24,000 nt of DNA from Candidatus Blautia faecipullorum (lineage in GTDB: Bacteria; Bacillota; Clostridia; Lachnospirales; Lachnospiraceae), in assembly GCA_019115125.1 (NCBI GenBank), contig DXEG01000060.1, positions 23,725 through 47,724 of the forward strand, given 5' to 3'. The translations under genes and the position numbers were made by a program. Shown one piece after another: positions 4,947 to 24,000 of this stretch; position 1 is the stretch's first letter; every line of letters starts with the position of its first letter. The notes under the pieces are model-generated. The model ran no database searches and was not told the origin of the DNA. It was given only the letters and a program-made list of their open reading frames with translations.

Positions 4947-7900
4947 CTAAATATTTGAATTCCACAACGTCTCCGTCCCCCAGATCGTCACATTCATCTG
5001 ATTTGCCCGCTCCACAAACGCAGCTCTGCCCTTGTTCCGATAATCCGAAGAGACCGCCAGAACACCCTTTGACTGGAAGTGGTCTGACACCGCTCTGATC
5101 TCATACACCCACTGCATATTATCATTGTCGGAGGTCTTACATGAAACCATCGTGGCATTCATTCCGCTTAAGGCAATGATATCAATTTCATTTTTTACAG
5201 ACTCACCTTCACCAATGATAGCCTGTTTGATCACTTCTCCCCTGGCTTTTACATACTCGCTGTATCCAAAACAGGATGGGCCCTTTCGATCAAGCATTTC
5301 AATCAGCTTCTGCTCCTGTGGAGTATCTTCAGCATCCCAGGCAATCTTAACACCGGTTTCCACATCATCATATTTTCCGGATTCACGCATCAAGTAATAG
5401 ACAATCAACTCAAAAATCAGCCCCTGTGTTTTCATAAGCCGCATAGTGGCGGCATCACTGAATGCAAAAGTGACTGTATCGTCCTCTGTATTGAACTGCA
5501 GATTCTCTATGTATCTCCTCTGCAGAAGATCCTGCAGGAAGGCCAGTTTCACCTTTCTATGTACTTCTGTTTCCTCGGAAGATACGATCGGTGCCTGCTG
5601 CACAAGGCGGCTGGAAACCTTCAGGCCACCATTCATCGGAATAAATTTTAATGACTTATATTGATCCGTCTCGGTTATCTGTCCCATCTCAAACTGTTGC
5701 AGCAAACTTCCTATCTCCGGATTTACATATTCAAAATCAACCGTAACTATGGGGCCTGCAATATTTTTCTCATAATCACGAATGATATGATACGTCTGCA
5801 ATTGTTCCAGCACATTGCCAATCATTGAATTTCGGAAGATAGTTTCGGAAAATGAACCTGTATAATGTAGTTCATCACCTTCCAGATCCTGCTTTATTCC
5901 ATCACCATAATTCATGTCTTTTGCCGCCTGGGAAAAGAATTTTGTGACTGCTGCCCAAGTATTGAAACTGCCCGAAGCCTTTCCATTGGCGCCTTTAAGA
6001 TGTGTCGGCTCACAATATTTCTTAAACAATGCCATAATGGACTCGTACTCACTGCTGTCATAAAGGCCGGCATATTCATTGGCAATCCTCCCTCCCATAA
6101 GCTGAATATATTCTGCAAGCGAAAAATTCTTATTATCCAATCCGACACCAACATTTTTATCTGCTGAAAAAGATACAATTCCCTTATTTTGCAGATACTG
6201 AACAGCATTAATGTTACCCGTATACTTTTCCATCAGTCGTCCGATAGCAAGAGCTGCGTCATATCCTCTGTTTGGCACACAGTTAATAATGATATCATGA
6301 TGTCCATACTTTATAAGTTGCTCTTCGAGGCAAGCAAATATCGACTCAACATCCATGGATGATAATGTTATGAACTCCGGAACTGTATTATTTCCGCGGC
6401 TCTCAAAATAAATCGCAATCGCATTCTGGTATTTCCTGCTATTGACCGCTTTTCCAATAAATACAGCATTCTGCGCACAGAAAAGCGTTGGAATAATTAC
6501 ATCATATGTAGATGTGGTCATTCCATCACTCAGGGTGATTACTGTTCCGTACTTCTTCCCATACCAAAGTGCAAATGGCAGCATTTCCACCAACTGTTCA
6601 TCCAGGCTAAAGAAATCCATCCTCGCATTTCTGGTTTTAATTGGAGAAAGAATCTTGTTCACTTCCTCAATGTGATCCGCTTCCTCTGAAGAAATTGATA
6701 ACGCATATTCCCTAGCTGCATCCAGAGACTTCTGATAAAGCACCAGAGAATTATCGTCATCATTGGCCAGTTTCGAAATCGCACGTCTCAGGTTGGAATA
6801 CTCGGGACTATTGCCGACAACAAGATGAAGGACAGCTTCTATGTCAACCTGGCTGGACAGCTTTTTTGTAAGCTGATGTGCTCTCAGGCTGGCCCGGTCA
6901 AGTTCAGACGGATCGTTTGCCGGGCATTTTTTTCTGATCCATAAATCATACTGATGATCAAAGTCATTTGCCAACGAAGCTTTCGTTCCGCAATCACACA
7001 GACACATATGCAGGAGTCGCTGTTTATCCTGATGGGTATTGCCATTTTGGTAAAGCAGTGTTTCCTCTTCCTTAGGTGTCGGCGCACGGAACCCGCGTGT
7101 TACGGTATATGCATTCCAGCGACGATGTTCCAGGGCAACCAGACTCCAGTAAAGCTTATTCTTCTTGCGGATAGCTTCCTTTAGTGTATCCACCGGAGCC
7201 TTCTTTATGTCCACATTCTTACACATAGCCAGTTTTACCGGAATATGAACCGCAGATGCGAAGGAAGAATCCGCTGCATAATTTGCACCGATAAAATTGG
7301 CTGCGATACTGATATCTCCGATCTCATAGTCCTTGGGAGATTCCACAAACTCTGCAACTCTGCTTGCCTCAAACTGATCATCTGCATCCTTCTTATTGAT
7401 TCGCTGATCATATTTCATACTGTAGCTGAAATTGATATTGCGGGCAATTCGATCAAGTTCCGTGCCAGTCACAGATTCATTACCAAAGAAATGTACCTCG
7501 ATGCCATTGTCCCGTCCAGCTTCTATCAGCATCTCCTGCTCATCCGTACTGATGCTATCGGAAAGTTCGTTGAAGACATTGACAAGTATTCTGTGTCGCT
7601 GCCCTGCTGATTCTGCCTGTGCCCCGGAAATCTGTGTAATCAGTTCCGAAGCAGCCAGCCAGTTATGTTCCGCATCACCCAGAGAGATGATAATATAATT
7701 ATATCTATTAGCAGCAAAATCAAGCGGGGCCAGTCCGGCAGAATCCATTCCTTTTTCGACATCAATATCAACAAAACGCAGATTCGCATAATGTTTCTGC
7801 TCCGCATACAATTTAAGCGCAGGCATACATGCTCCGGCCTTCGTGGAAAGTACCTGTTCCTTATACGCTGCGGCGTTCTGAGAGGCAACTGTGATACTTA

Positions 7901-8084
7901 GTTCTGTATCCAGCGCCTGACTGGCCCAGAATGCCGCCTTGAATGCCTCGTTTCCGATCCAGCCAGTTCCAAGGATCAGAACATTGCTCTGCTTCTTGTT
8001 TCCTCTGATTTCTGCATATTCGCAGATTGGTTTTTCATATAGAAGATCATAAATCCGCAGTCGGTATTCGCCTATTTTTGCCAT
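4947..8084 (-). CDS. giant multidomain protein (1045 aa): NAD(P)-type Rossmann head, EHxRW (RyR-like) module, CARF-like domain, PD-(D/E)xK (Card1/Can2, DUF1887-like) nuclease
   Basis: GGGAGAAGGA lies 5 nt before ATG 8084. GxGxxG is present at residues 39-44 (VLILGTGWIGNEA). EHRRW is at 7116..7130, followed by RGF...LHMCLCDCG. Residues ~512-665 resemble the Card1 CARF layout (VITLSDG...; DIIINCVPNRGYDAALAIG; NFSLAEYIQLMGG, cf. Card1 LSLKEYLDAHG). The C-terminus has GLIFELIVYY (E892), NEIDIIA (D968) and MVSCKTS (S981-x-K983), a restriction-endonuclease-fold pattern with Ser in place of the usual Glu. Confidence 0.9.
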   Translation of the reverse strand: MAKIGEYRLRIYDLLYEKPICEYAEIRGNKKQSNVLILGTGWIGNEAFKAAFWASQALDTELSITVASQNAAAYKEQVLSTKAGACMPALKLYAEQKHYANLRFVDIDVEKGMDSAGLAPLDFAANRYNYIIISLGDAEHNWLAASELITQISGAQAESAGQRHRILVNVFNELSDSISTDEQEMLIEAGRDNGIEVHFFGNESVTGTELDRIARNINFSYSMKYDQRINKKDADDQFEASRVAEFVESPKDYEIGDISIAANFIGANYAADSSFASAVHIPVKLAMCKNVDIKKAPVDTLKEAIRKKNKLYWSLVALEHRRWNAYTVTRGFRAPTPKEEETLLYQNGNTHQDKQRLLHMCLCDCGTKASLANDFDHQYDLWIRKKCPANDPSELDRASLRAHQLTKKLSSQVDIEAVLHLVVGNSPEYSNLRRAISKLANDDDNSLVLYQKSLDAAREYALSISSEEADHIEEVNKILSPIKTRNARMDFFSLDEQLVEMLPFALWYGKKYGTVITLSDGMTTSTYDVIIPTLFCAQNAVFIGKAVNSRKYQNAIAIYFESRGNNTVPEFITLSSMDVESIFACLEEQLIKYGHHDIIINCVPNRGYDAALAIGRLMEKYTGNINAVQYLQNKGIVSFSADKNVGVGLDNKNFSLAEYIQLMGGRIANEYAGLYDSSEYESIMALFKKYCEPTHLKGANGKASGSFNTWAAVTKFFSQAAKDMNYGDGIKQDLEGDELHYTGSFSETIFRNSMIGNVLEQLQTYHIIRDYEKNIAGPIVTVDFEYVNPEIGSLLQQFEMGQITETDQYKSLKFIPMNGGLKVSSRLVQQAPIVSSEETEVHRKVKLAFLQDLLQRRYIENLQFNTEDDTVTFAFSDAATMRLMKTQGLIFELIVYYLMRESGKYDDVETGVKIAWDAEDTPQEQKLIEMLDRKGPSCFGYSEYVKARGEVIKQAIIGEGESVKNEIDIIALSGMNATMVSCKTSDNDNMQWVYEIRAVSDHFQSKGVLAVSSDYRNKGRAAFVERANQMNVTIWGTETLWNSNI

Positions 8085-8607: not shown

Positions 8608-8912
8608 ACCTCATGAACCAAACGGCAGCCCGTCTTCCTAAATACCTGGTTGTCATGGCGATGAAAGGCGTTGGGTCTTCTCTGGGTCCTCAGCTGATGG
8701 CCGAATCGGGGATGTGGCCCGTATCACTCACCGAAACGCCATTACTGCATTTGCCGACGTTGACCCCTGTGTAAATGAATCCGGAGACTACGCCCAGAAA
8801 AGTGTCCATGCGTCAAAGCAGGGCTCTCCTGCACTGCGTAAGACATTGTTCCAGGTCATGGATGTCCTGATCAAGACAAAGCCTCAGAATGATCCAACAT
8901 ACTTGTTTGATA
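8608..8912 (+). pseudogene. IS110-family transposase remnant (C-terminal ~100 codons, 5'- and 3'-truncated, frameshifted)
   Basis: It reads ...AARLPKYLVVMAMKGVGSSLGPQLMAE, then after a 1-nt loss near 8705 continues (I)GDVARITHRNAITAFADVDPCVNESGDYAQKSVHASKQGSPALRKTLFQVMDVLIKTKPQNDPTYLF. This matches the conserved C-terminal block of IS110/IS1111-type transposases (GVG...AEIGD...F...aGl.P...SG....isk.G...lR..l). The N-terminal catalytic part is absent. Homology stops where the 186-aa minus-strand gene ends. Confidence 0.8.
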
Positions 8913-8917
8913 ATAAC

Positions 8918-9478
8918 CTATCGGATCACGCTATATGTCCTGTCAAATTCGTCTCTTTCAACGAAATTCCAATCACACTCGGTCACATTGCCTACATCAT
9001 CATAAGAAATACCGTAGAAAATGAGCATTGCATCCTCTGTGGCTGCCTCCATGGTTCCCCAAAGCTGCGCTGTATATCTCCGGTCTGAAGAAGCCTTATC
9101 AATGACCAGCCCCTTCTTTTCTACCAAAAACGTCACCTCAGGACACATCTCAAGCTTCGCATCCCAGGCTGGCAGAGGCTTCGGAATCTGCTCGAAGGTA
9201 TCTCCTTCGATATGTCTGTGATTCGCCTCAAAGTATTCCTTATCATTGGGATATGGACTGTCGGTACTATCCAGCTTGATCCAGTCACCAGCCATCGCTT
9301 TCTCTCCGCCGACAGCTCCGTTGACTGCCTCCCGCGAATGGATTTCATATCTGCCATCACCAAGATCGCAGATCTTGCCATTCAGCATCAGTTCTTTTAT
9401 AACAGCATTATCGCTTCCCAGCTGATAAGCCTTAACCAATTTTCCTTTATTCTTAATCACTTCATACATGATTTTCAC
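8918..9478 (-). CDS. hypothetical protein (186 aa)
   Basis: ORF-track frame with GAGGTG 6 nt before ATG 9478. Ordinary globular composition. No motif I recognise. Confidence 0.7.
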   Translation of the reverse strand: MKIMYEVIKNKGKLVKAYQLGSDNAVIKELMLNGKICDLGDGRYEIHSREAVNGAVGGEKAMAGDWIKLDSTDSPYPNDKEYFEANHRHIEGDTFEQIPKPLPAWDAKLEMCPEVTFLVEKKGLVIDKASSDRRYTAQLWGTMEAATEDAMLIFYGISYDDVGNVTECDWNFVERDEFDRTYSVIR

Positions 9479-9695: not shown

Positions 9696-11231
9696 TTACG
9701 CCGTTTTCTCGGATTTGTTGTAGTTTTCCACATCCTTTACCATACTTCCCATCCCTGCTTCTGCAAGGTTAATGAACGAAAGTACACGGTCGCTCCAGCC
9801 TGCAATGAGGTTAAAGCGTGCGCCGCAGAACTGCTGTGTACCATAGCCCTGAAGATCTACACCATGCACCCAGAAGTCTTTGTTGTACTTGCTGCGGTAT
9901 TTGTTCGCAAGCCCCTGTATGGTGGTTTCAAGACCACAGTTGCACTCGTTATCCGAGAAATAGATAACTCGGTCGAACGGCTTAAAGCGTTTGCCCTTAT
10001 CGACCTCCAATGCATATTCCATCGGAAGTGAAAGGTCTGTGCCACCGCCTGCAAATGAGTTCTGTAATGCAATTTCAAGAACAGAATCATACTTGCCATA
10101 GTTTGCGATACGATATCCTCTCTCTTCACTGTTTTTATACACATCCTCCGGGAATTGCATTCCGCGCCGTCTGTAGTATTCACGATAGAGAGTCTTCGAT
10201 GCTTCAAAGTAGCATACCGTTGCATCTTCGCAAAGCTTGTTTGTCATCGCCCCGAGTAAAGAAGCGATATCAGAGCAGCGGATATCGCTCTTTGCAGAAA
10301 TCCGACAGCTCATTGAACCGGATACATCAATGGCGATAAGTGTTCTGCCCTTGATTTTCTCCATATTATCAACCGAAGCCGTAACTGCGCTCTCGAGAGC
10401 ACGGTGAATCTCATCAGTCATGAGTCCTTCCTTCTCAAGCATGCGATAAGCGCTGAAGAAACGGAACGGAAGCTGCTTCGACTTCTTCACCTGAACCGAA
10501 TCAGAAAGTACCGCAAGCACCGGAGTGATATCCGCACCGGACATAATAATGTTGCGAAGGTTACGAAGCAATGCCATGTAGCCAACTTTGCCGGATGCAA
10601 TAAGCTCATCCCAGACTTCCCTTGTATTGCCACGAGAGGAAAGTTCCGTTTCCCAGGTGTACGGAGTCTCAAGGGTATCGTTTAAGATCTTCCCAAAGAG
10701 TTCCTCAATCTCTTTGGACTTCGGATTCGGATGTGTAATGCGGAGAATATCACGGAACTTCACATCTTTGCAGCCGCCATTGTATTTTGCAATCTGGTAC
10801 TCATCGAAGTTCTGGATCACCTCAGCCATCCCACGCTTTAATGCGTTCGGAAACGGCTTGCCATACATGGTCTTGTAGCAGGCCATGATTTCTGTAACAT
10901 CATCCGGACGTTTGACCACACTACAAATGGTCTGGCGGGTAAATGCAGATGCCTCGCGGGCGATCGCAGCGGTAAGCACATGGCTTACAGAACGCATGTT
11001 GAAAACCTCACGAGCAAAGCAGGCAAGGTTGCTAACAAACTCCGGGTGCTTCTTGCAGAGTTCTGTTGCAAGCTGGACGATTTCGTTATCCGTGGATCCA
11101 TAGTATTTTTCCTCGCTAAACATGGTGGTCACTACTGCTGTCATAAGTTGTTCCTTATTGCTCATTCGGTATGCTGCATGACCGGAACGGTTTTCGGTTT
11201 TGATTGTGTTGGTTGTGTTGAACTTAGCCAT
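9696..11231 (-). CDS. rsr: Ro60-related protein Rsr (TROVE domain + C-terminal vWA domain)
   Basis: 511 aa with GGAGGTG 6 nt before the ATG. The N-terminal and central TROVE-like sequence (NRSGHAAYRM...EKYYG...; GYMALLRNLRNI; KQLPFRFFSAY) is followed by a vWA MIDAS motif (LIAIDVSGSMS). Two Y-RNA-like genes lie immediately upstream, which is the classic rsr context. Confidence 0.9.
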   Translation of the reverse strand: MAKFNTTNTIKTENRSGHAAYRMSNKEQLMTAVVTTMFSEEKYYGSTDNEIVQLATELCKKHPEFVSNLACFAREVFNMRSVSHVLTAAIAREASAFTRQTICSVVKRPDDVTEIMACYKTMYGKPFPNALKRGMAEVIQNFDEYQIAKYNGGCKDVKFRDILRITHPNPKSKEIEELFGKILNDTLETPYTWETELSSRGNTREVWDELIASGKVGYMALLRNLRNIIMSGADITPVLAVLSDSVQVKKSKQLPFRFFSAYRMLEKEGLMTDEIHRALESAVTASVDNMEKIKGRTLIAIDVSGSMSCRISAKSDIRCSDIASLLGAMTNKLCEDATVCYFEASKTLYREYYRRRGMQFPEDVYKNSEERGYRIANYGKYDSVLEIALQNSFAGGGTDLSLPMEYALEVDKGKRFKPFDRVIYFSDNECNCGLETTIQGLANKYRSKYNKDFWVHGVDLQGYGTQQFCGARFNLIAGWSDRVLSFINLAEAGMGSMVKDVENYNKSEKTA

Positions 11232-11295: not shown

Positions 11296-11422
11296 AGAGA
11301 ATAGGCGATAACAGTAAATATAACGCTTTCCCATTAAGCTACAGAACAGCTATGCTGTCCCAGTGGGATTCGAACCCACATCCCTCGATAACCAGACTCG
11401 AAGTAACTGCCATCTGCACTGC
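11296..11422 (-). ncRNA. yrlA: Y RNA, YrlA-type with tRNA-like module (copy 1, rsr-proximal)
   Basis: On the minus strand the ends form a long stem (GAUGGCAGU with ACUGUUAUC, including two G-U pairs). Enclosed are a variable-arm-like hairpin (CUUCGA...UCGAGG) and a T arm GUGGG-UUCGAAU-CCCAC (11363..11379). Next come an acceptor-like stem closed by a loop (UGGGACAG-CAUAG-CUGUUCUG), then UA and a D arm (GCUU-AAUGGGA-AAGC). This permuted tRNA mimic matches the published YrlA architecture. RNA ends are not determined. Confidence 0.8.
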
Positions 11423-11500: not shown

Positions 11501-11627
11501 AGAGAATCGGCGATAACAGTAAACAAAGCGCTTGACCGTTAAGCTACGGAACAGCTCAGCCGTCCCGGTGGGATTCGAACCCACATCCCTCGATAACCAG
11601 ACTCGAAGTAACTGTTATCTGCACTGC
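11501..11627 (-). ncRNA. yrlA: Y RNA, YrlA-type with tRNA-like module (copy 2, distal)
   Basis: Same 127-nt architecture, offset 205 nt from copy 1. Terminal stem is GAUAACAGU/ACUGUUAUC (9 perfect bp). T arm is GUGGG-UUCGAAU-CCCAC. The closed acceptor-like stem is CGGGACGG-CUGAG-CUGUUCCG and the D arm is GCUU-AACGGUC-AAGC. Differences from copy 1 fall in loops or keep pairing (A-U to G-U, C-G to U-G). Confidence 0.8.
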
Positions 11628-13333: not shown

Positions 13334-14050
13334 CTATCGATATTTGCATAACAGGTTAACGTTTACCTTCTCATATGCATTGAATTCATTAGCGATTTCT
13401 TCATCGGACTTACCGGCTACCGGCTCATACCAGTCCTGTGCACTGAAATAGTCAATATTCTCCTGTATTTTGAACTCTCTCCCATGGCGTGCATACATCT
13501 CATTGATGATCATTTGAATCTCATCGCTGCTATAACCTTCAATATCTGATACCTCCAGGTATCGATCCGCACTATCCGGCATCAGATAGGCTGGCATTGC
13601 TGCATTCTCTTCAGATGTTGCTTCATTATCAGAATCAATGTCCTGAACCTCCTCCGCTGTGAAGGTGTCATCTTCCATCGTATCGGACAGAACCTGCTCA
13701 TTCATGTAGTTGGTGATGGCCTGCTCTTCCGAAGATACATGAGAACGGTTATAGAAAAACGCTCCAATAAACAAGGAAATTACAGCACAGACAATAACTG
13801 ACTTCCACGGAATTCCTGTATGGACAGTTGTTCCAGCCGTGCCAATGGTATGAATCATATTGCCTGCATTACCTGTTGTCCTGTCGTTTCCGGCTGCTGT
13901 CTGCGGACGATATGTCCTGGTTGTTCTTACAATTCTCTGATTCCTCTGGGCCCTGTGATCAGCTTCCGCCTGAGACACATTATCCAATGTGGTTCTTCCG
14001 GTTCTGTCATCTTTATAGTATCGTTTTCCATTGATCAGTACATAACTCAT
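13334..14050 (-). CDS. single-pass membrane protein with C-terminal YARHG domain
   Basis: Start set at ATG 14050 (GTAAGGAGG 8 nt upstream, MSYVLINGKRYY...). One TM helix (WKSVIVCAVISLFIGAFFY), an acidic linker, then the literal YARHG motif (INEMYARHGREFKIQENIDYFSAQDWY). Confidence 0.8.
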   Translation of the reverse strand: MSYVLINGKRYYKDDRTGRTTLDNVSQAEADHRAQRNQRIVRTTRTYRPQTAAGNDRTTGNAGNMIHTIGTAGTTVHTGIPWKSVIVCAVISLFIGAFFYNRSHVSSEEQAITNYMNEQVLSDTMEDDTFTAEEVQDIDSDNEATSEENAAMPAYLMPDSADRYLEVSDIEGYSSDEIQMIINEMYARHGREFKIQENIDYFSAQDWYEPVAGKSDEEIANEFNAYEKVNVNLLCKYR

Positions 14051-14079
14051 TAGAAACGCCTCCTTACAAAACCGTCCGT

Positions 14080-14466
14080 TCACTTACTGGACTCATAATG
14101 CATCCTGATACGAGCAAATACATCTTCAGCAGTAAGATGCCCCAGTACAGTATCATGAACTCTGTCCATCTCTTCCCGTGTCATCAGTCCGCTGATTTCA
14201 AGAAGTCCCTCAGAAGATCCGTGCCCGTTTGCAATAACACTGCATACAGCGCCTTTGCCCGGTCCCTGCCAGACATTACTGTTACTGTCTTTCGGCTTCG
14301 GACGCCCTTCCGATCCGTAGTAGCAAATCTGCATTCCAAAGTTTTCAAATGGAATACCTGCTTCTGTCAGCAAATCATCCAGTTTCTCCAATTCATCGGA
14401 AGCATTGCCTTCAGCAAAGCCACCGGAAAGTGCCATCATCAGTTTAAGTAAATCCATTGTGCTCAT
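14080..14466 (-). CDS. hypothetical protein (128 aa)
   Basis: ORF-track frame with CAGGAGGAATACAAA before ATG 14466. First gene after the 97-nt spacer that follows E1. No motif recognised. Confidence 0.7.
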   Translation of the reverse strand: MSTMDLLKLMMALSGGFAEGNASDELEKLDDLLTEAGIPFENFGMQICYYGSEGRPKPKDSNSNVWQGPGKGAVCSVIANGHGSSEGLLEISGLMTREEMDRVHDTVLGHLTAEDVFARIRMHYESSK

Positions 14467-14555
14467 TTTGTATTCCTCCTGCCTTTTGATGATTTAAGGA
14501 TAAACTCTTCTGATCATTTCATCATCCGGCGGCTTTTGTTTCTGCTGAAACTACA

Positions 14556-14564
14556 TTTGAAACT
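14556..14564 (-). promoter_or_regulatory. TTTGAAACT motif abutting the E1 stop codon, with a second GTTTCAG half-site and GTTTC/GAAAC inverted repeat next to it
   Basis: TTTGAAACT at 14556-14564 and CTGAAACT at 14545-14552. On the minus strand these are AGTTTCA repeats 11 nt apart (start to start). GTTTC-tgct-GAAAC lies at 14538-14551. About 90 nt upstream of ATG 14466. Confidence 0.35.
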
Positions 14565-15916
14565 TATGCTACAATATTACATCCAATATCTGAAGATGAT
14601 TTCTCTGCTCCGCAATAGGAGCAGGAATCATTTTTCTGCGCCGGTCCGGACTTCCAGGTAAACGGCCTGCGTTCATCCTCTGTACCAAACAGATGCATGT
14701 ACGGATTAACATCCTGATCTATCGGATAATTTAGCAGCACCGTACACTGATTGATGTATGGAAGCAGTTTTGCCTCATAGCCTTCCTCATGCTCCATCAA
14801 AATGTCGATAGCCAGCTTTGTTTCAAAGATCGCTGTAAGCTGGATATCCAGATACATCCCCGGCTGGAAATGAAGCTTCTCAAGCTCTGTCTCCGTTGCA
14901 TAGAAACGCCTGCGCACCGCCTGATTGCTGTAATCGACACCCTTATCTTCGCCATAAGCACAGGTGTAGCATGCCATGCCGGAATTCGGTTTATACCAGA
15001 ACACCTCTCCTGTGGAGCCTCTTGGGCCACAGCCTGCATCAATCATCGGAATGTTGTATTTATCTGCCAGCTCGTTACAAACATAGCCGCAATGACGATT
15101 ATCCGCACAGCAAAGGATAATGGAATCCTTCCAGATAATCTTCTCAAGTTCAGCAGGATCCACATGCTGGATCAGATCTCTGAAGGTATAAATCTTGCAG
15201 TTCGGATTGATGTCAGCAGCTCTTTCCTTGAAACAGTCAACTTTATAGCGACCTACATCATGGATACCACATTCGTGACGGCAAACATTGTGATAAGCAA
15301 GGATGTCATTGTCAGCCACGATCAGGGAACCGATTCCCGCTCTTACCAGTTCCAGACCGACCTTAAAACCGCCGGATCCGATACCGGAAATAATAGCCTG
15401 CTTTGCTGCCATTCTATCCTGCTCTACGATTCCTTGATTTCTGGAAAATACATCCTGGCGTGTGGAGTAATAATCAATATTGATCTCTGATCCGGAATTA
15501 TCTCTGACAAAGATTTCTGCCTGCTCTTCATTCCAGACAATGGAAAGACCAAACTGACCGAAAATGTCACCGTCTTCTCTCCCTGTGTGCTCTTTTCTGA
15601 CCGCCATACCCAAGACCTTCGCATCTGTTCTTGCATCGTATAGCGCCTCCTGTACGATGTTATAGGTTTTAGTCTCTGGGTGGTAATAGCCCCAAAGTTC
15701 ACCCTCATAACGCTGCTTCCGGTATTCTTCCGGAATCAGAACCGTGTATGGTCTGAGCGCCTCCTGAATCTTTTCAAAGTCCATGAAGTCTTCCTCAGAT
15801 GTTCCTTTCTCTGCCGTATTGTCCATGAAAGTAACTTCTGCAGTTTCTGTCTTAACCGGTTCTGTTTCGGCCGATACCGCTGCCTTCTGCAATGCATTTG
15901 CTGTTCTGTTATCCAT
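14564..15916 (-). CDS. ThiF/MoeB-family E1-like activating enzyme (Bil D-like position)
   Basis: Rossmann ATP site (IISGIGSGGFKVGLELVRAGIG), IVADNDILAYHNVCRH (cf. vD.D.v..sNLnRQ), LCCADN, and CxxC pairs (MACYTCAY; CSYCG). Start set at ATG 15916 (GGAGGAGG 8 nt upstream). Alternative starts are 15958, 15826 and 15781. Confidence 0.85.
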   Translation of the reverse strand: MDNRTANALQKAAVSAETEPVKTETAEVTFMDNTAEKGTSEEDFMDFEKIQEALRPYTVLIPEEYRKQRYEGELWGYYHPETKTYNIVQEALYDARTDAKVLGMAVRKEHTGREDGDIFGQFGLSIVWNEEQAEIFVRDNSGSEINIDYYSTRQDVFSRNQGIVEQDRMAAKQAIISGIGSGGFKVGLELVRAGIGSLIVADNDILAYHNVCRHECGIHDVGRYKVDCFKERAADINPNCKIYTFRDLIQHVDPAELEKIIWKDSIILCCADNRHCGYVCNELADKYNIPMIDAGCGPRGSTGEVFWYKPNSGMACYTCAYGEDKGVDYSNQAVRRRFYATETELEKLHFQPGMYLDIQLTAIFETKLAIDILMEHEEGYEAKLLPYINQCTVLLNYPIDQDVNPYMHLFGTEDERRPFTWKSGPAQKNDSCSYCGAEKSSSDIGCNIVA

Positions 15917-16569
15917 ATATTTTTCCTCCTCCGGGTGTCCCCTGAACAAATCGGACAATCTTGTGCGGATTGATCCTTTATCTTCGGCTGCTGCAAGCGT
16001 TCCACGCTCTGCTTTTTGGCCGCCTTTCTTGCGGCTTCATTACGTTCTACAGTTTCTTTGAGTCTTCGCAGGGCAATACGGGGCATAGCCGCTCTGACTG
16101 CCTTATCGTTGATCTCATACTCTACTTCCGTCTCGTCGCCATTCTCATCAATATACCAGAACTTAATCCGGAATTCAGGGTCAATGAAGATGAGTCCGTT
16201 TACAACGCCGCCAAACTGCTGCGCAAGCTTGATATTTGCCGGATGATCACCATGGCTGAAATGCAGGTACCCGTCCGGATGTCTGTGAACCTGAGAGACT
16301 GTCAGCTTACCGTTTGAGAAATCATAATATTCGCTGAGTCGTGTCGATAAGTGGTCTGCATAAACATGATCCTTCTCACACATAGTTGGCGTATAGGTGG
16401 CATTGATGCCGCTATCCGATACCATGTCAAAAAAGAAGTCATTTCCGATGCGGATGCCCGGCATCTGGATAATGCTTTCGTTTCCGGGATGCCGCCCCAC
16501 CTCGAGCAGCATCCCTCTGTAGGTATTGTGGGTAATATAAACATGATACTTATCTTTTCGCTGAAACAT
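15736..16569 (-). CDS. JAB/JAMM (MPN+) metallopeptidase (Bil C-like position)
   Basis: Complete JAMM signature: upstream Glu (MLLEVGR) and HRHPDGYLHFSHGD (HxH-x7-S-xx-D). ATG 16569 has GGAGG 5 nt upstream (the track's 16575 start is GTG). The last ~60 codons are extremely Arg/Lys-rich and overlap the E1 gene by 181 nt. Confidence 0.8.
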   Translation of the reverse strand: MFQRKDKYHVYITHNTYRGMLLEVGRHPGNESIIQMPGIRIGNDFFFDMVSDSGINATYTPTMCEKDHVYADHLSTRLSEYYDFSNGKLTVSQVHRHPDGYLHFSHGDHPANIKLAQQFGGVVNGLIFIDPEFRIKFWYIDENGDETEVEYEINDKAVRAAMPRIALRRLKETVERNEAARKAAKKQSVERLQQPKIKDQSAQDCPICSGDTRRRKNIWITEQQMHCRRQRYRPKQNRLRQKLQKLLSWTIRQRKEHLRKTSWTLKRFRRRSDHTRF

Positions 16570-16580
16570 AGACACCTCCG

Positions 16581-17033
16581 TTATCTATCGCGATCCACAC
16601 CTGTCTTCTCCCATACACAATAGACGTCGATCCACCTTAGAACCCTAGTCATGGCAGTGTAGCCATTCACGGACGCAGGATCCGTAGATTTTACCTGACA
16701 GATATAGGGAAGTCCCATCGTGGAATCAGAAATCAGGTGATGGAAGCCCGGCTTCAATTTTGTCATAGGATACACTTTGATTGAGCCGCCAAAGAGGCCA
16801 TCGGCATCTCTGCCCGGGTGATCATGCTCGTATACCACATGGAATACAAAGGTTCGCCAACGCTGATCCGGTGCCGGCTTAACCGGCAGGGTCACATCCA
16901 CACAGAATCTATGCTTGTTGTCATAACAAAACATCATTTTCATATTCGGATGGTTATACTCACGCATAAACCTCAGGAAAGCATCCTTTTCAAACTGCAG
17001 TAAAGCTCCGTTCTCTTTTTCATACCAATACAT
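16581..17033 (-). CDS. UBC-fold E2-like conjugating enzyme (Bil B-like position)
   Basis: IKVYPMTKLKPGFHHLISDSTMGLPYICQV...YTAMTRVLRWI follows the E2 core pattern (yP..pP...HPN...G.iCl...W). C in YICQ is the candidate catalytic Cys. ATG 17033 has GGAGGG 6 nt upstream (the track's 17039 start is TTG). Confidence 0.7.
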   Translation of the reverse strand: MYWYEKENGALLQFEKDAFLRFMREYNHPNMKMMFCYDNKHRFCVDVTLPVKPAPDQRWRTFVFHVVYEHDHPGRDADGLFGGSIKVYPMTKLKPGFHHLISDSTMGLPYICQVKSTDPASVNGYTAMTRVLRWIDVYCVWEKTGVDRDR

Positions 17034-17045
17034 ATGCAACCCTCC

Positions 17046-17426
17046 TTATCGTGCATAGTTCTTCTCTGGTGCCGTATTGATTACAGGGGTGCTGGAATTC
17101 TGCGCCTGACTTGCAGGCACCACCTCTCCGTTGCGGAATACAAACGCCTCAACGTCTGCAGTTCCATTTGCCTGATCTTCGAGCTGGCCATAATTAGGCT
17201 CATGAGCTGTCCTAATAACAGGAGTCGTAGAGTTCTCTGCCTGATTGGCTGGTACTATTCTTCCTTTGTCGTATACGAATGCCTCTACATCTGCAGATCT
17301 ATTTGCCTGATCCTCAAGCTGGCCATAATTCTTATATCTTCCGGTTCTGATCATATCCATATGCTTTTCCTCCTTGTCAAAATCCGCATATTCCTTAAAG
17401 TTACCATTTATTACAGATGCATTCAT
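17046..17426 (-). CDS. 126-aa tandem-repeat protein occupying the Ubl/modifier slot of the E2-JAB-E1 operon
   Basis: ATG 17426 has GAAAGGAGG 9 nt upstream (MNASVINGNFKEY...). It contains two 45-aa repeats, NYGQLEDQAN(R/G)(S/T)ADVEAFV(Y/F)..G..VPA.QA.NS.TPVI.TA.E, and begins a third (NYAR-stop). The stop is 12 nt from the E2 start. Confidence 0.7.
   Translation of the reverse strand: MNASVINGNFKEYADFDKEEKHMDMIRTGRYKNYGQLEDQANRSADVEAFVYDKGRIVPANQAENSTTPVIRTAHEPNYGQLEDQANGTADVEAFVFRNGEVVPASQAQNSSTPVINTAPEKNYAR
17049..17330 (-). repeat. 2 x 135-nt in-frame tandem repeat plus a 12-nt partial third unit
   Basis: AATTATGGC (N-Y-G) occurs at 17330-17322 and 17195-17187. AAC-TAT-GCA-CGA (N-Y-A-R) lies at 17060-17049. 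Confidence 0.9.
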
Positions 17427-17442
17427 TGTACAGTCCTCCTTT

Positions 17443-17661
17443 CTATCTAAACAAAGATCTGATGATATAACCGATGACAAATACCATGATCACAATCGGC
17501 ATGACTGCATTGATCCATGCCCAGGTGTTATTGGCAAATGCCGTAACGATAAACTCCTTATATTTGATACAGCTGACCACCACCAGCATTGTTCCTGCTA
17601 TTGTCCAGCCGATCAGGAACCGTTTGATCACGGTCCACACTGTAACTACCCGATAATCCAT
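17443..17661 (-). CDS. small membrane protein (72 aa, 2 predicted TM helices)
   Basis: ATG 17661 (MDYRVVTVWTVIK...) has GGGGGTGGTG 6 nt upstream. The track's 17700 start is GTG inside the previous gene. Hydrophobic stretches: FLIGWTIAGTMLVVVSCI and WAWINAVMPIVIMVFVIGYII. Confidence 0.65.
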   Translation of the reverse strand: MDYRVVTVWTVIKRFLIGWTIAGTMLVVVSCIKYKEFIVTAFANNTWAWINAVMPIVIMVFVIGYIIRSLFR

Positions 17662-20195: not shown

Positions 20196-21602
20196 TTAAC
20201 CGTACAACGGCATTGTAAACAGAAACGGATCTTCACACGCAAGTGAAACCACTGCTTCACCGTTCTTCAGTTTCAACAGATTCCAGTCTTCCACCGTGTG
20301 ACCGGCCCGCTGGATATTGAGATTTGCCTGCTGTACGGAAAGACTGAAGTTCTGGTAGTTCTCACCCAGGCGATTGATAACAAACTGTCTGGTATCGTAA
20401 TCGTTCGATCTGAACGCCACAATGTTCTGGAAAGACGACAGGATGTTCCTTGCGCCGGCCACCCCATATTGCTCTTCAAGTCCGCATGTATTCTGAAGTC
20501 CGCACATCATTCTGACTCCCAGAGAACGCCCGAAATTTAAACTGTCTGATAAATGCTCAAGCCTCGGAAGAAGGAGCATTTCGTCTAACAGAAAGTACTT
20601 ATTGGTTTTCATCTGTTGTCTTCCACCCAGTGCGTTAGCAAGAGCTCTGTCGATGAGAATGCCATACATAGGGGCTAGCAGTCTGCCTTTACGAAGGTCA
20701 TACTCAATAAAGACAACTTTCTTATTTCCACTGCATATGATATCTCGCATAGAGAACTCTCTTGCCGGATCAGCCTGTGCAAACGGACCGACGAACATCT
20801 TCTTCAACATGGAACTGACATAAGAGTTCACTCCCTGCGTCTGGTTTCCCTTGCCTGAGATATAGTCAATGCAGCTGCGTTGATCAGACATATAATCCAG
20901 ACTGAGAATCTTCTTAAGATCCTCATTGGTACTGTGAGTAAAGAAATTGATAAATTCTTTGTTATTCAGCTTCGACTGATCAAAACGCCAGTAAGTCTTC
21001 ATGAAATAAATCATGACAGCTGCAACAACCTGCTCTGCCATTGCCGGAAAAACAGGCTGTGTTTCACTTCGCATGGACTGAAACAGCTGCTCACAAAGTT
21101 CCAGTGCATCTTCGTTGGATTCCGGCGTATAGACCAGTTTCCCATCATTTCCCCGTGGCATTACTTCTGCAAAAATATTATGATAGGAGGTAACCCTGCG
21201 ATATGCATCGCCATTGCCGATGATAACCTTCATGCTGTCCGGAATTCTGCTTCCGAAAGTCTCCAGATAATCACCCTTCGTATCGAAGATGATAATCACA
21301 TCTGTCGGCTGCATGGTGGCAAGCATGCGATCCAGTGTCATATTAAAAAAATTGGTCTTACCAGTGCCAGGCGCCCCAAGAGCCAATAAGCCATAGGCAA
21401 GTATATCTCTGCTCAAACCGAACAATCTCTTAGTCTTCGGATCCTGAAATGCAACAAACGGACTTCGTGATTTATCCGCTGTCCATACAGGAACCGGAAT
21501 GTCTCCGATGCTCTGTCCTAAGATGGTCTTGGTGTACATACCACTGTTTCTTTCCTGATTGCTGCCTGTCCCGATTCGTTTATGTCCAAAATCATATGCC
21601 AT
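20196..21602 (-). CDS. TraG/TraD/VirD4-type (FtsK-HerA superfamily) P-loop ATPase, soluble (468 aa, no TM segment)
   Basis: AAGGAGGG lies 7 nt before the ATG. Walker A (LGAPGTGKTNFF), Walker B (YFLLDEMLLLP) and GVRMMCGLQNTCGLEEQYG (cf. the coupling-protein motif Qs..QL...YG). Confidence 0.8.
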   Translation of the reverse strand: MAYDFGHKRIGTGSNQERNSGMYTKTILGQSIGDIPVPVWTADKSRSPFVAFQDPKTKRLFGLSRDILAYGLLALGAPGTGKTNFFNMTLDRMLATMQPTDVIIIFDTKGDYLETFGSRIPDSMKVIIGNGDAYRRVTSYHNIFAEVMPRGNDGKLVYTPESNEDALELCEQLFQSMRSETQPVFPAMAEQVVAAVMIYFMKTYWRFDQSKLNNKEFINFFTHSTNEDLKKILSLDYMSDQRSCIDYISGKGNQTQGVNSYVSSMLKKMFVGPFAQADPAREFSMRDIICSGNKKVVFIEYDLRKGRLLAPMYGILIDRALANALGGRQQMKTNKYFLLDEMLLLPRLEHLSDSLNFGRSLGVRMMCGLQNTCGLEEQYGVAGARNILSSFQNIVAFRSNDYDTRQFVINRLGENYQNFSLSVQQANLNIQRAGHTVEDWNLLKLKNGEAVVSLACEDPFLFTMPLYG

Positions 21603-23700: not shown

Positions 23701-24000
23701 TTACCCGCATCTGAGATCCAGGTAATTGTTTTCCTCTTTGCGATTTGTCAGCATGCTGCAATGTTCCGCATAATAGGTTTCCACATCAGCCTTACGGAAT
23801 CTGCAGGGCACAACCTCGGAGAACAGCTTAACCTTTTCCTTGTAAAGGAGTTGTACATGCTCATAGGCCTGAGGACCAGCAGCCTTTCCATTCACCTGTG
23901 TCCGAAAAAGGTTCAGATAAGACTCGTAATCTCTGACCTCATCAATCAATCCTGCTCGGGCCAACCCCACAAAAATAGCTGCAGATCTCGCCTGGCAGTT
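23701..24000 (-). CDS. hypothetical protein, C-terminal part (frame stays open to the right edge)
   Basis: The ORF-track frame 23701..23970 starts at a GTG, but the frame remains open to position 24000 (...NCQARSAAIFVGLARAGLIDEV...), so the gene probably begins outside the window. Confidence 0.55.
   Translation of the reverse strand, partial: NCQARSAAIFVGLARAGLIDEVRDYESYLNLFRTQVNGKAAGPQAYEHVQLLYKEKVKLFSEVVPCRFRKADVETYYAEHCSMLTNRKEENNYLDLRCG

Follow-up and report, generated by a model that had tools for sequence, protein, structure and literature searches.

What governs a Card1/Can2-like nuclease when no synthase of a signal nucleotide is encoded near it? The question is raised by a 24,000-nucleotide stretch of DNA from Candidatus Blautia faecipullorum (GenBank assembly GCA_019115125.1, contig DXEG01000060.1, forward-strand positions 23,725–47,724), hereafter the window, in which an open reading frame (ORF) on the minus strand (4947..8084) encodes a protein of 1045 residues that we call P0001. 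To our knowledge, CARF-nuclease effectors have so far been understood only as receptors of cyclic oligoadenylate (cOA) in type III CRISPR systems. P0001 comprises an N-terminal head, a helical linker, a CARF domain, an insert and a nuclease domain. We propose, with confidence that is about evenly divided, that it is the effector nuclease of a conjugative element and is controlled through its head by a signal that is probably derived from nicotinamide adenine dinucleotide (NAD). All coordinates are those of the window, and the features of P0001 all lie on its minus strand.

Overall architecture of P0001

A preliminary description of the locus, made from the nucleotide sequence, had proposed a Card1/Can2-like CARF-nuclease core at 4947–6551. 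This segment is only the C-terminal half of the ORF, residue 512 beginning at nucleotide 6551. The short strings quoted there, VITLSDG (residues 515–521), DIIINCVPNRG (597–607) and NFSLAEYIQLMGG (653–665), are all present in the translation of 4947–8084, and E892, D968 and S981-C-K983 have the residue numbers given.

The full-length protein was modeled with AlphaFold2 from an alignment of 42 homologues (23–90% identity), giving a mean predicted local distance difference test score (pLDDT) of 87.9 and a predicted template modeling score (pTM) of 0.83. In a Foldseek search of the PDB, the best matches were VC1899, Can2, Cdn1 and Card1, with E values from 2.4e-11 to 7e-8 and target-normalized TM-scores of 0.58–0.64. 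VC1899 (1xmx) is the top match (E = 2.4e-11, TM-score 0.64), Can2 (8bao) and Cdn1 (9u49) are among the top matches and Card1 (6wxw, 6xl1) matches with an E value of ∼6e-8 and TM-scores of 0.61–0.63. The alignments, which begin at about residue 506 and run to residue 1045, cover the entire 370–400-residue targets over ∼550 columns. The predicted fold and these whole-target matches recover the proposed core; a failure to recover the fold was checked for by both methods and did not occur. The helical linker between the head and the core (residues ∼413–505; 6570..6848) is recognized from helices at residues 415–507 of the model.

The ∼100 homologues of P0001 (23–100% identity) are all unannotated and belong to Clostridia from gut metagenomes, for the most part metagenome-assembled genomes of Lachnospiraceae and Eubacteriales, and a copy with 75% identity is found in the isolate Frisingicoccus caecimuris DSM 28559. 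When the CARF-nuclease half was compared with 1.84 billion cluster representatives, 213 matched with E ≤ 1e-3 and 33 with E ≤ 1e-30; the fused family is genuine and, given these numbers, modest in size.

The nuclease domain

The PD-(D/E)XK nuclease domain (residues 886–1045; 4950..5429) was delimited from PF09002, the PADLOC models, the alignment with 1XMX and conservation, and is the sole part of the C-terminal half that is detectable by sequence. The PF09002 match of P0001 scores 24.1 bits, under the curated cut-off of 26.4; a precomputed match to the same family is found in most homologues. The PADLOC CARF4--CARF_PDDEXK models match P0001 with an E value of 2e-10, and the family profile (hmmsearch) matches 1XMX with an E value of 0.006. 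A helical insert of ∼45 residues (917–960) lies within the domain.

The putative active site includes E892 (5409–5411), an N965-E966-x-D968 motif (D968 at 5181–5183) and S981-C-K983 (5136–5144), followed by Y994-E995 (5100–5105). E892, N965, E966, D968, S981, K983, Y994 and E995 are each conserved in at least 90% of the 42-sequence alignment, and for E892, N965, E966, D968, S981, K983 and E995 this level of conservation extends down to ∼25% identity. Loss of the catalytic residues among homologues, as would be expected of a dead domain, was looked for and did not occur.

In the hmmsearch alignment with 1XMX, S981 is placed opposite the Glu of the IECKT segment of VC1899. The active site of Cdn1 is formed by E274, D310, E323 and K325 (PMC12825302), and the 13 residues between D968 and S981 equal the spacing between D310 and E323. 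The replacement of the Glu of the ExK motif by Ser, which the preliminary description had noted as a peculiarity of this protein, is therefore confirmed, and the catalytic E…D…E-x-K tetrad of Card1/Can2 is not preserved in P0001, where Ser981 occupies the position of the ExK Glu. It is no peculiarity of one protein: a census covering 178 relatives shows S-x-K to predominate throughout the clade, standalone CARF-nucleases of ∼400 residues included. A conserved Tyr on the next helix is followed by a residue that covaries with this replacement: S-x-K is accompanied by Y-E in 143 proteins of the census and by Y-K in 17, while none of the eight E-x-K proteins has Y-E.

In the AlphaFold2 model, E995 is located on the helix that directly follows the β-strand bearing S981 and K983. 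Active enzymes are known of the PD-XXK-E type, a variant with a migrated carboxylate, and the sequence and modeled secondary structure around S981 and E995 resemble this variant. From this pattern we infer that the nuclease of P0001 is active, with E995 completing the site.

The CARF domain and the region following it

The CARF domain (residues ∼506–640; 6165..6569) was assigned from Foldseek and from a six-stranded α/β pattern in the AlphaFold2 model, both of which place it upstream of and adjacent to the nuclease, as in Card1/Can2. The isolated CARF domains of Cam1 and Csm6 also match P0001 in Foldseek, with probabilities of 0.98–1.0. By sequence the domain is invisible, as a profile of residues 500–700 gave no PDB or Pfam match. 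The standalone relatives match Can2 (7BDV) across the CARF domain with an E value of 1.6e-6 and form a sequence bridge; the CARF identity is known only through the fold comparison and this bridge.

The loop after strand β4 was described in the preliminary account as non-canonical, and alignment with the standalone relatives and with Can2 7BDV bears this out. The standalone proteins carry F-D-L-T-G-G-D-E (D-x-TGG) at this position, corresponding to LNVTGGTK in Can2, so that the standalone relatives and 7BDV share the pattern D/N-x-TGG, whereas the aligned segment of P0001 is the degenerate N601-C-V-P-N-R-G607 (6264–6284). The Card1/Can2 loop consensus [DN]-x-[ST]-G-G-x-[KRE] does not hold for P0001. 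In the census, [ST]GG is present in 60 of 73 standalone proteins and is found nowhere in the CARF region of 135 of 149 fused proteins; the only fused lineage that has it at the correct place is that of L017/P0060. Two giant fused relatives, in loci L009 (1523 residues) and L020 (1450 residues), have lost most of the CARF domain. Because the standalone forms keep [ST]GG and the fused forms are without it, fusion of the head is accompanied by the decay of the CARF domain's classical ligand loop. The β1 motif VITLS, which includes S519, is retained: T517, S519, D528 and P532 are kept, with an insertion of 6–8 residues.

The inter-domain region (residues ∼641–885; 5430..6164), delimited from secondary structure and absent or shorter in the standalone relatives, had been described as an insertion of ∼220 residues. 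Extra material is indeed present, but its size was overestimated, since about half of the region is the ordinary Card1/Can2 linker. The family-specific addition is a β-rich insert (residues ∼725–835), and a winged-helix-like element precedes the nuclease. Both this insert and that within the nuclease domain are missing from some shorter family members.

The N-terminal head

Two modules make up the head (residues 1–410): a Rossmann domain of the dinucleotide-binding type, with a GxGxxG motif, and an RyR-like domain that has diverged strongly. The Rossmann-like domain (residues ∼25–225; 7410..8012) shows a β-α-β pattern in the AlphaFold2 model and contains the glycine motif G39-T-G41-W-I-G44 (7953–7970). 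G39 is invariant and G41 near-invariant in the 42-sequence alignment, and GxG is likewise invariant in 58 other proteins that bear only the head. Foldseek returned weak matches of this domain to dehydrogenase and RCK Rossmann folds.

The second domain (residues ∼262–412; 6849..7301), helical in the model, was assigned as RyR/R12-like from conservation, hhalign and PF02026. It contains an invariant E-H-R-R-W motif (E319-H320-R-R-W323; 7116–7130), H359 (7008–7010) and D396 (6897–6899), and its order of motifs, H-x-x-W, G-(W/F) eight residues later, (H/T)-P-C-L-V and D-R, is also found in the small PF02026 proteins that the head-bearing loci encode. A profile of 63 head sequences aligned with the small RyR proteins in hhalign with an E value of 2.9e-4 and a probability of 40%, in the expected register, whereas the narrower 42-sequence head alignment gave an insignificant E value of 0.26. 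Among the 63 head segments, PF02026 has four matches (best E = 0.0026), and no other Pfam family matches more than two of them; P0001 itself has no PF02026 match in Pfam. When a hidden Markov model (HMM) of the small RyR proteins was run against 1306 ORFs, the first seven sub-threshold matches were all head proteins, at the RyR-like region. The domain stays below the Pfam threshold, and it has two insertions, one of which is Cys-rich. A Foldseek search of the full model against the viral structures of BFVD gave no match with E ≤ 0.001 and no RyR protein.

In RyDEP, the residues that bind cyclic ADP-ribose (cADPR) are H75, W78, H100 and D117 (PMC13232231). Through the small RyR proteins, these align with H320, W323, H359 and D396 of P0001, which are kept in at least 90% of the 63 head proteins. 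The evidence for an RyR-like helical domain is suggestive, not proven; the ligand residues of the RyR type are present and make the head a putative binder of cADPR-class nucleotides. An NAD(P)-type head had been raised earlier as a possible ligand site, and with its conserved GxGxxG Rossmann domain and the cADPR-binding residues of its RyR-like domain this has become the leading hypothesis.

Genomic contexts of the fused family

The gene for the fused protein, which travels on conjugative elements with genes for a type IV coupling protein (T4CP) and ClpP, was examined in 19 distinct contexts. No CRISPR-like array and no cas gene was found in any of these loci. A TIR gene is in the same operon as the fused gene in seven contexts (L005, L007, L009, L010, L024, L097 and L099); in four of the seven it lies within ∼20 nucleotides of the preceding gene or overlaps it, and some TIR genes overlap the stop codon of the fused gene or of the small RyR gene. 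Three more contexts (L015, L017 and L019) have a TIR gene within 10 kb, making 10 of 19 in all; these are raw counts, in which the calls in L015, L017, L019 and L024 come from an HMM built in this analysis. By eye, the TIR proteins keep the catalytic motif W-x-x-x-E.

One sub-clade has a seven-gene operon that encodes, in order, a protein of ∼1100 residues, one of ∼415 residues, a helix-turn-helix (HTH) protein, the fused protein, an RyR protein, a TIR protein and either a second TIR protein or a DUF4062 protein. The TIR-type operons of L007, L097 and L099 begin with genes for a protein of ∼1080–1170 residues, a protein of ∼415 residues and an HTH_3 protein of ∼100 residues. The first of these has a faint precomputed match to PF05183 (RdRP) in L097 and none in L007.

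The head in other loci

A genome scan seeded on the E-H-R-R-W motif yielded 175 relatives, of which the best 80 were retrieved as loci; genes in the retrieved loci were called with a crude ORF picker. In most of the loci of these best 80 of 175 relatives, the head forms the C-terminus of proteins of 700–900 residues whose N-terminal domain has no Pfam match. Some 66 Clostridia loci carry the head only, combined with variable N-terminal domains. The head gene is directly followed by a small RyR gene in 23 of these 66, ∼18 contain a standalone CARF-nuclease and 10 contain a TIR gene. Where the standalone CARF-nuclease is present, the usual gene orders are CARF-nuclease, AAA+AAA+M41 protease, N-terminal domain plus head, and RyR, or the shorter CARF-nuclease, head and RyR. 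The recurrence of such split and fused arrangements is evidence of the Rosetta-stone type that the small RyR protein functions together with the head and the CARF-nuclease.

The longer order is seen as an operon of a standalone S-x-K CARF-nuclease, a protease of ∼1160 residues (AAA_2, AAA and Peptidase_M41), an N-terminal domain plus head and a small RyR protein in L026, L027, L029, L063, L073, L076 and L088, and also in L072 and L085. The ∼1160-residue genes were considered as Cas10-like cyclases, a reading that their identity as AAA_2 + AAA + Peptidase_M41 proteases rules out. The N-terminal domain of the head proteins in these operons (∼320 residues) has no Pfam match.

The surrounding element

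Convergent with the fused gene is that for P2 (1061..4486, plus strand), a protein of 1141 residues with two all-α repeats, TPR-like helices and its own copy of the head, marked by EHSRW and KLHGCIC. P2 matches the head of P0001 in BLASTP with an E value of 2e-5, and the head HMM matches it at residues 695–1068; its layout is that of the 700–900-residue proteins with a C-terminal head. A partner of the P2 type adjoins the fused gene in the window and in L005, L015, L016 and L019. The repeats form a tandem all-α domain of ∼215 residues (13–215 and 228–430), of which most homologues (∼936 residues) have one copy. The AlphaFold2 model of P2 is poor (pLDDT 61.7), and the fold search was uninformative beyond TPR-like matches. 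Searches against Pfam, PADLOC and NCBIfam gave weak noise only, including PADLOC PDC-S15 and the ThsA STALD domain. P2 was also considered as a hidden signal synthase, and no match supports this; its N-terminal repeats, being all-α, are neither TIR-like nor cyclase-like.

A conjugative element of gut Lachnospiraceae carries the window as cargo; one T4CP gene lies inside the window and ClpP and a second T4CP gene just outside, which places the window between conjugation genes. The T4CP genes (20196–21602, minus strand, and L093:6368–7726), one of them beside ClpP, flank the cargo region. This region may belong to a composite element or be bracketed by two conjugation modules. CRISPR arrays and genes for Cas10, CD-NTase and TIR proteins are all absent from the 24-kb window and from ∼42 kb of the source contig; the earlier statement that no signal synthase is in view applies to the window and also to the ∼20 kb that flank it at either end.

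The cargo further includes a ThiF/E1 cassette, YARHG and AAA_2 genes and a TROVE-vWA gene. The ThiF/E1 gene (14564–15958, within 13334–17480, minus strand) matches the Cap2-like 'E1-E2' models of PADLOC with an E value of 2e-22; the cassette, with small unannotated genes, YARHG and AAA_2, recurs in L095, L096 and L098. A CBASS reading of this gene was dropped, as no CD-NTase is present, and the cassette may be a ubiquitin-like conjugation system carried by the element. In the 680-nucleotide gap directly upstream of the TROVE/Ro60-vWA gene (9696–11231, minus strand) are two sub-threshold matches to YrlA (RF02553) at 11325–11383 and 11530–11588 (minus strand; 23.2 and 26.5 bits against a gathering threshold of 69), a placement that fits the known pairing of Ro60 with Y RNA, here on a conjugative element. 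An ORF of 89 residues (23701–24000, minus strand) running off the end of the window is the C-terminal part of a 285-residue NADAR-DarT1 (PF22397) gene, so that the same element encodes an ADP-ribose-processing protein. Between the upstream region of the fused gene and the next gene, a short ORF (8714–9088, plus strand) appears by eye to be the C-terminal remnant of a transposase.

Proposed mechanism and alternatives

In the mechanism that we propose, the head would bind, and perhaps process, an NAD-derived nucleotide of the ADP-ribose/cADPR class, which in many relatives would be made by the TIR proteins encoded immediately downstream. The resulting conformational change would be relayed through a CARF scaffold that has lost its own TGG loop, the ligand loop becoming dispensable once sensor and effector are fused. 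The nuclease site, with E892, E966, D968 and K983, Ser981 at the ExK position and Glu995 as the third carboxylate as in PD-XXK-E enzymes, would then close and cut nucleic acid, arresting or killing the cell. Small RyR proteins of the same operons may buffer or destroy the signal, and in the element of the window, which has no TIR gene nearby, the convergent head-bearing P2 may give the input. The more specific version, in which the head is a receptor or processing enzyme for TIR-made signals of the ADP-ribose type, within a new Thoeris-like system that has a Card1-type nuclease as effector and small RyR proteins as ring-nuclease-like buffers, we put forward as a tentative possibility.

Several observations weigh against control through the head by such a signal. 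No TIR gene is found in the window or within ∼20 kb on either side of it, and about half of the fused-family contexts contain none. The RyR assignment depends on a weak profile similarity (E ≃ 3e-4) and on motif register, and RyR structures are absent from the 50 best hits that the full-length query gave in each Foldseek search (PDB and BFVD). The conserved β1 motif (S519, D528 and P532) suggests that the CARF domain may still bind something. Within the active site, Glu995 is not obligatory, because 17 standalone S-x-K relatives have no equivalent of it.

Effector-associated domains of bacterial conflict systems serve as docking modules, and the head could likewise be a homotypic adaptor through which a head-bearing sensor, P2 here and the ∼760-residue proteins with an N-terminal domain and a head elsewhere, would detect an invader and, by contact between heads, recruit or activate the nuclease with no diffusible signal. 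Docking is in keeping with three observations: two neighboring convergent proteins of the window, and likewise of L005, L015, L016 and L019, bear the head; the head is combined with variable N-terminal domains in the ∼66 loci; and half of the fused loci are without any TIR gene. We nevertheless consider it unlikely, for the most conserved positions of the head are the Rossmann glycine loop and the RyR-type residues, which is typical of a small-molecule site; in the split systems the partner of the head protein is a CARF-nuclease that has no head but retains its canonical ligand loop, implying a diffusible ligand; and small RyR proteins, known cADPR binders, are tightly linked. The RyR-type residues could also be read as counter-defense cargo, sequestering or hydrolyzing the Thoeris cADPR of a recipient cell while the nuclease serves another function of the element. 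Proteins with RyR domains are proven anti-Thoeris sponges and glycosidases (PMC13232231), the genes sit on conjugative elements and the head keeps the catalytic His/Asp dyad. TIR genes in the same operons, some with overlapping stop codons, point instead to a self-contained signaling unit, and a sponge needs no conserved nuclease active site; this explanation seems improbable to us.

Two further alternatives concern the C-terminal half. The nuclease-like domain could be dead, retaining only a nucleic-acid-binding or scaffolding role, as the replacement of a metal-ligand Glu by S981 and a Pfam score below the gathering cut-off might suggest. Inactive domains normally drift, however, whereas here E892, N965, E966, D968, S981, K983 and E995 are at least 90% conserved and the S/E and E/K positions covary, and the active PD-XXK-E enzymes provide a precedent; we rate a dead domain as quite improbable. 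P0001 could, finally, be an ordinary cOA-activated ancillary nuclease of the Card1/Can2 kind, serving in trans a type III CRISPR system encoded at another site of the host genome. Its nearest structures are indeed the cA4-activated Card1, Can2 and Cdn1, and the PADLOC CARF4--CARF_PDDEXK models match it. But 135 of the 149 fused proteins have lost the cOA-binding TGG loop, neither CRISPR arrays nor Cas10 occur in the window or in any locus of the fused family, the gene moves on conjugative elements with T4CP and ClpP, and the 500-residue head and linker are absent from all characterized members, so that we give this possibility very little weight.

The family joins a Card1-type nuclease that has lost its CARF loop with an RyR-like, NAD-type head on conjugative elements, and the elements that bear it are frequent in Clostridia of the human and animal gut. 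That RyR-domain proteins can bind or cleave the cADPR signals made by TIR proteins is a recent finding, so far limited to phage anti-defense factors, and multi-domain bacterial or plasmid RyR proteins are not discussed in the RyDEP preprint (PMC13232231). A search of the accessible literature found no paper joining RyR, CARF, TIR and NAD; the architecture, the correlation of fusion with CARF decay and the gene network of head, RyR, CARF-nuclease and TIR appear to be undescribed. If the head is the sensor, the family would link NAD-derived signals to a nuclease by a new route. It would also assign RyR domains a role on the host or plasmid side, as the first RyR-domain immune sensor of this kind, and would be a clear case of sensor replacement by domain fusion, with the ancestral CARF ligand site left to decay.

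Comparison with known systems

The putative head ligand site has its counterpart in the RyDEP/RyR-R12 proteins (PF02026; PMC13232231), with which it shares the order of motifs and the four ligand or catalytic residues. RyDEP is a small phage anti-defense protein that serves evasion, whereas the head forms part of a large protein of cellular or plasmid origin and its proposed role is in sensing or regulation. The operons recall the logic of Thoeris (TIR protein ThsB with ThsA), a TIR protein with its catalytic Glu motif being co-operonic with a putative sensing effector in 7 of 19 contexts. P0001 lacks the SLOG or Macro sensor of Thoeris and its Sir2, transmembrane or caspase output, and has the RyR-like head, CARF domain and nuclease instead; with no TIR gene, the window does not agree with the definition of Thoeris, with which some relatives do agree. 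At the active site, P0001 shares with the PD-XXK-E enzymes Cfr10I, NgoMIV, Ecl18kI, SsoII as well as PspGI a non-acidic residue at the D/E position and a Glu on the following helix, of which Glu995 would be the spatial equivalent; no sequence kinship extends beyond the superfamily.

The closest sequence relatives of the C-terminal half are the uncharacterized standalone S-x-K CARF-nucleases of Clostridia (for example in L049, L078 and L081), which have the same S-C-K and are linked to head-bearing and small RyR genes. They differ from P0001 in being head-less proteins of ∼415–450 residues with a canonical D-x-TGG loop (60/73), some having Lys at the position of residue 995. Card1, Can2, Cdn1 and VC1899 (PF09002) are the best whole-target structural matches; they share with P0001 the order of CARF domain and nuclease and have in common with it the Glu of α1 and the motifs N-E-x-D and x-K, spaced identically. 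They comprise 370–450 residues, compared with 1045 in P0001, which has in addition the Rossmann and RyR-like head with its linker (∼500 residues) and the inserts. Where Card1 and Can2 have E-x-K, P0001 has S-x-K with Glu995 on the next helix; its TGG loop is lost, and it is carried by conjugative elements outside any CRISPR context, whereas Card1 and Can2 are ancillary nucleases of type III CRISPR systems. P0001 descends from the Card1/Can2 family and probably works like it, yet three of the tested traits that define that family, namely the ExK motif, the loop with TGG and an association with CRISPR, are missing from it, and it is 2.5 times larger; it is therefore set apart as a variant and not as a member.

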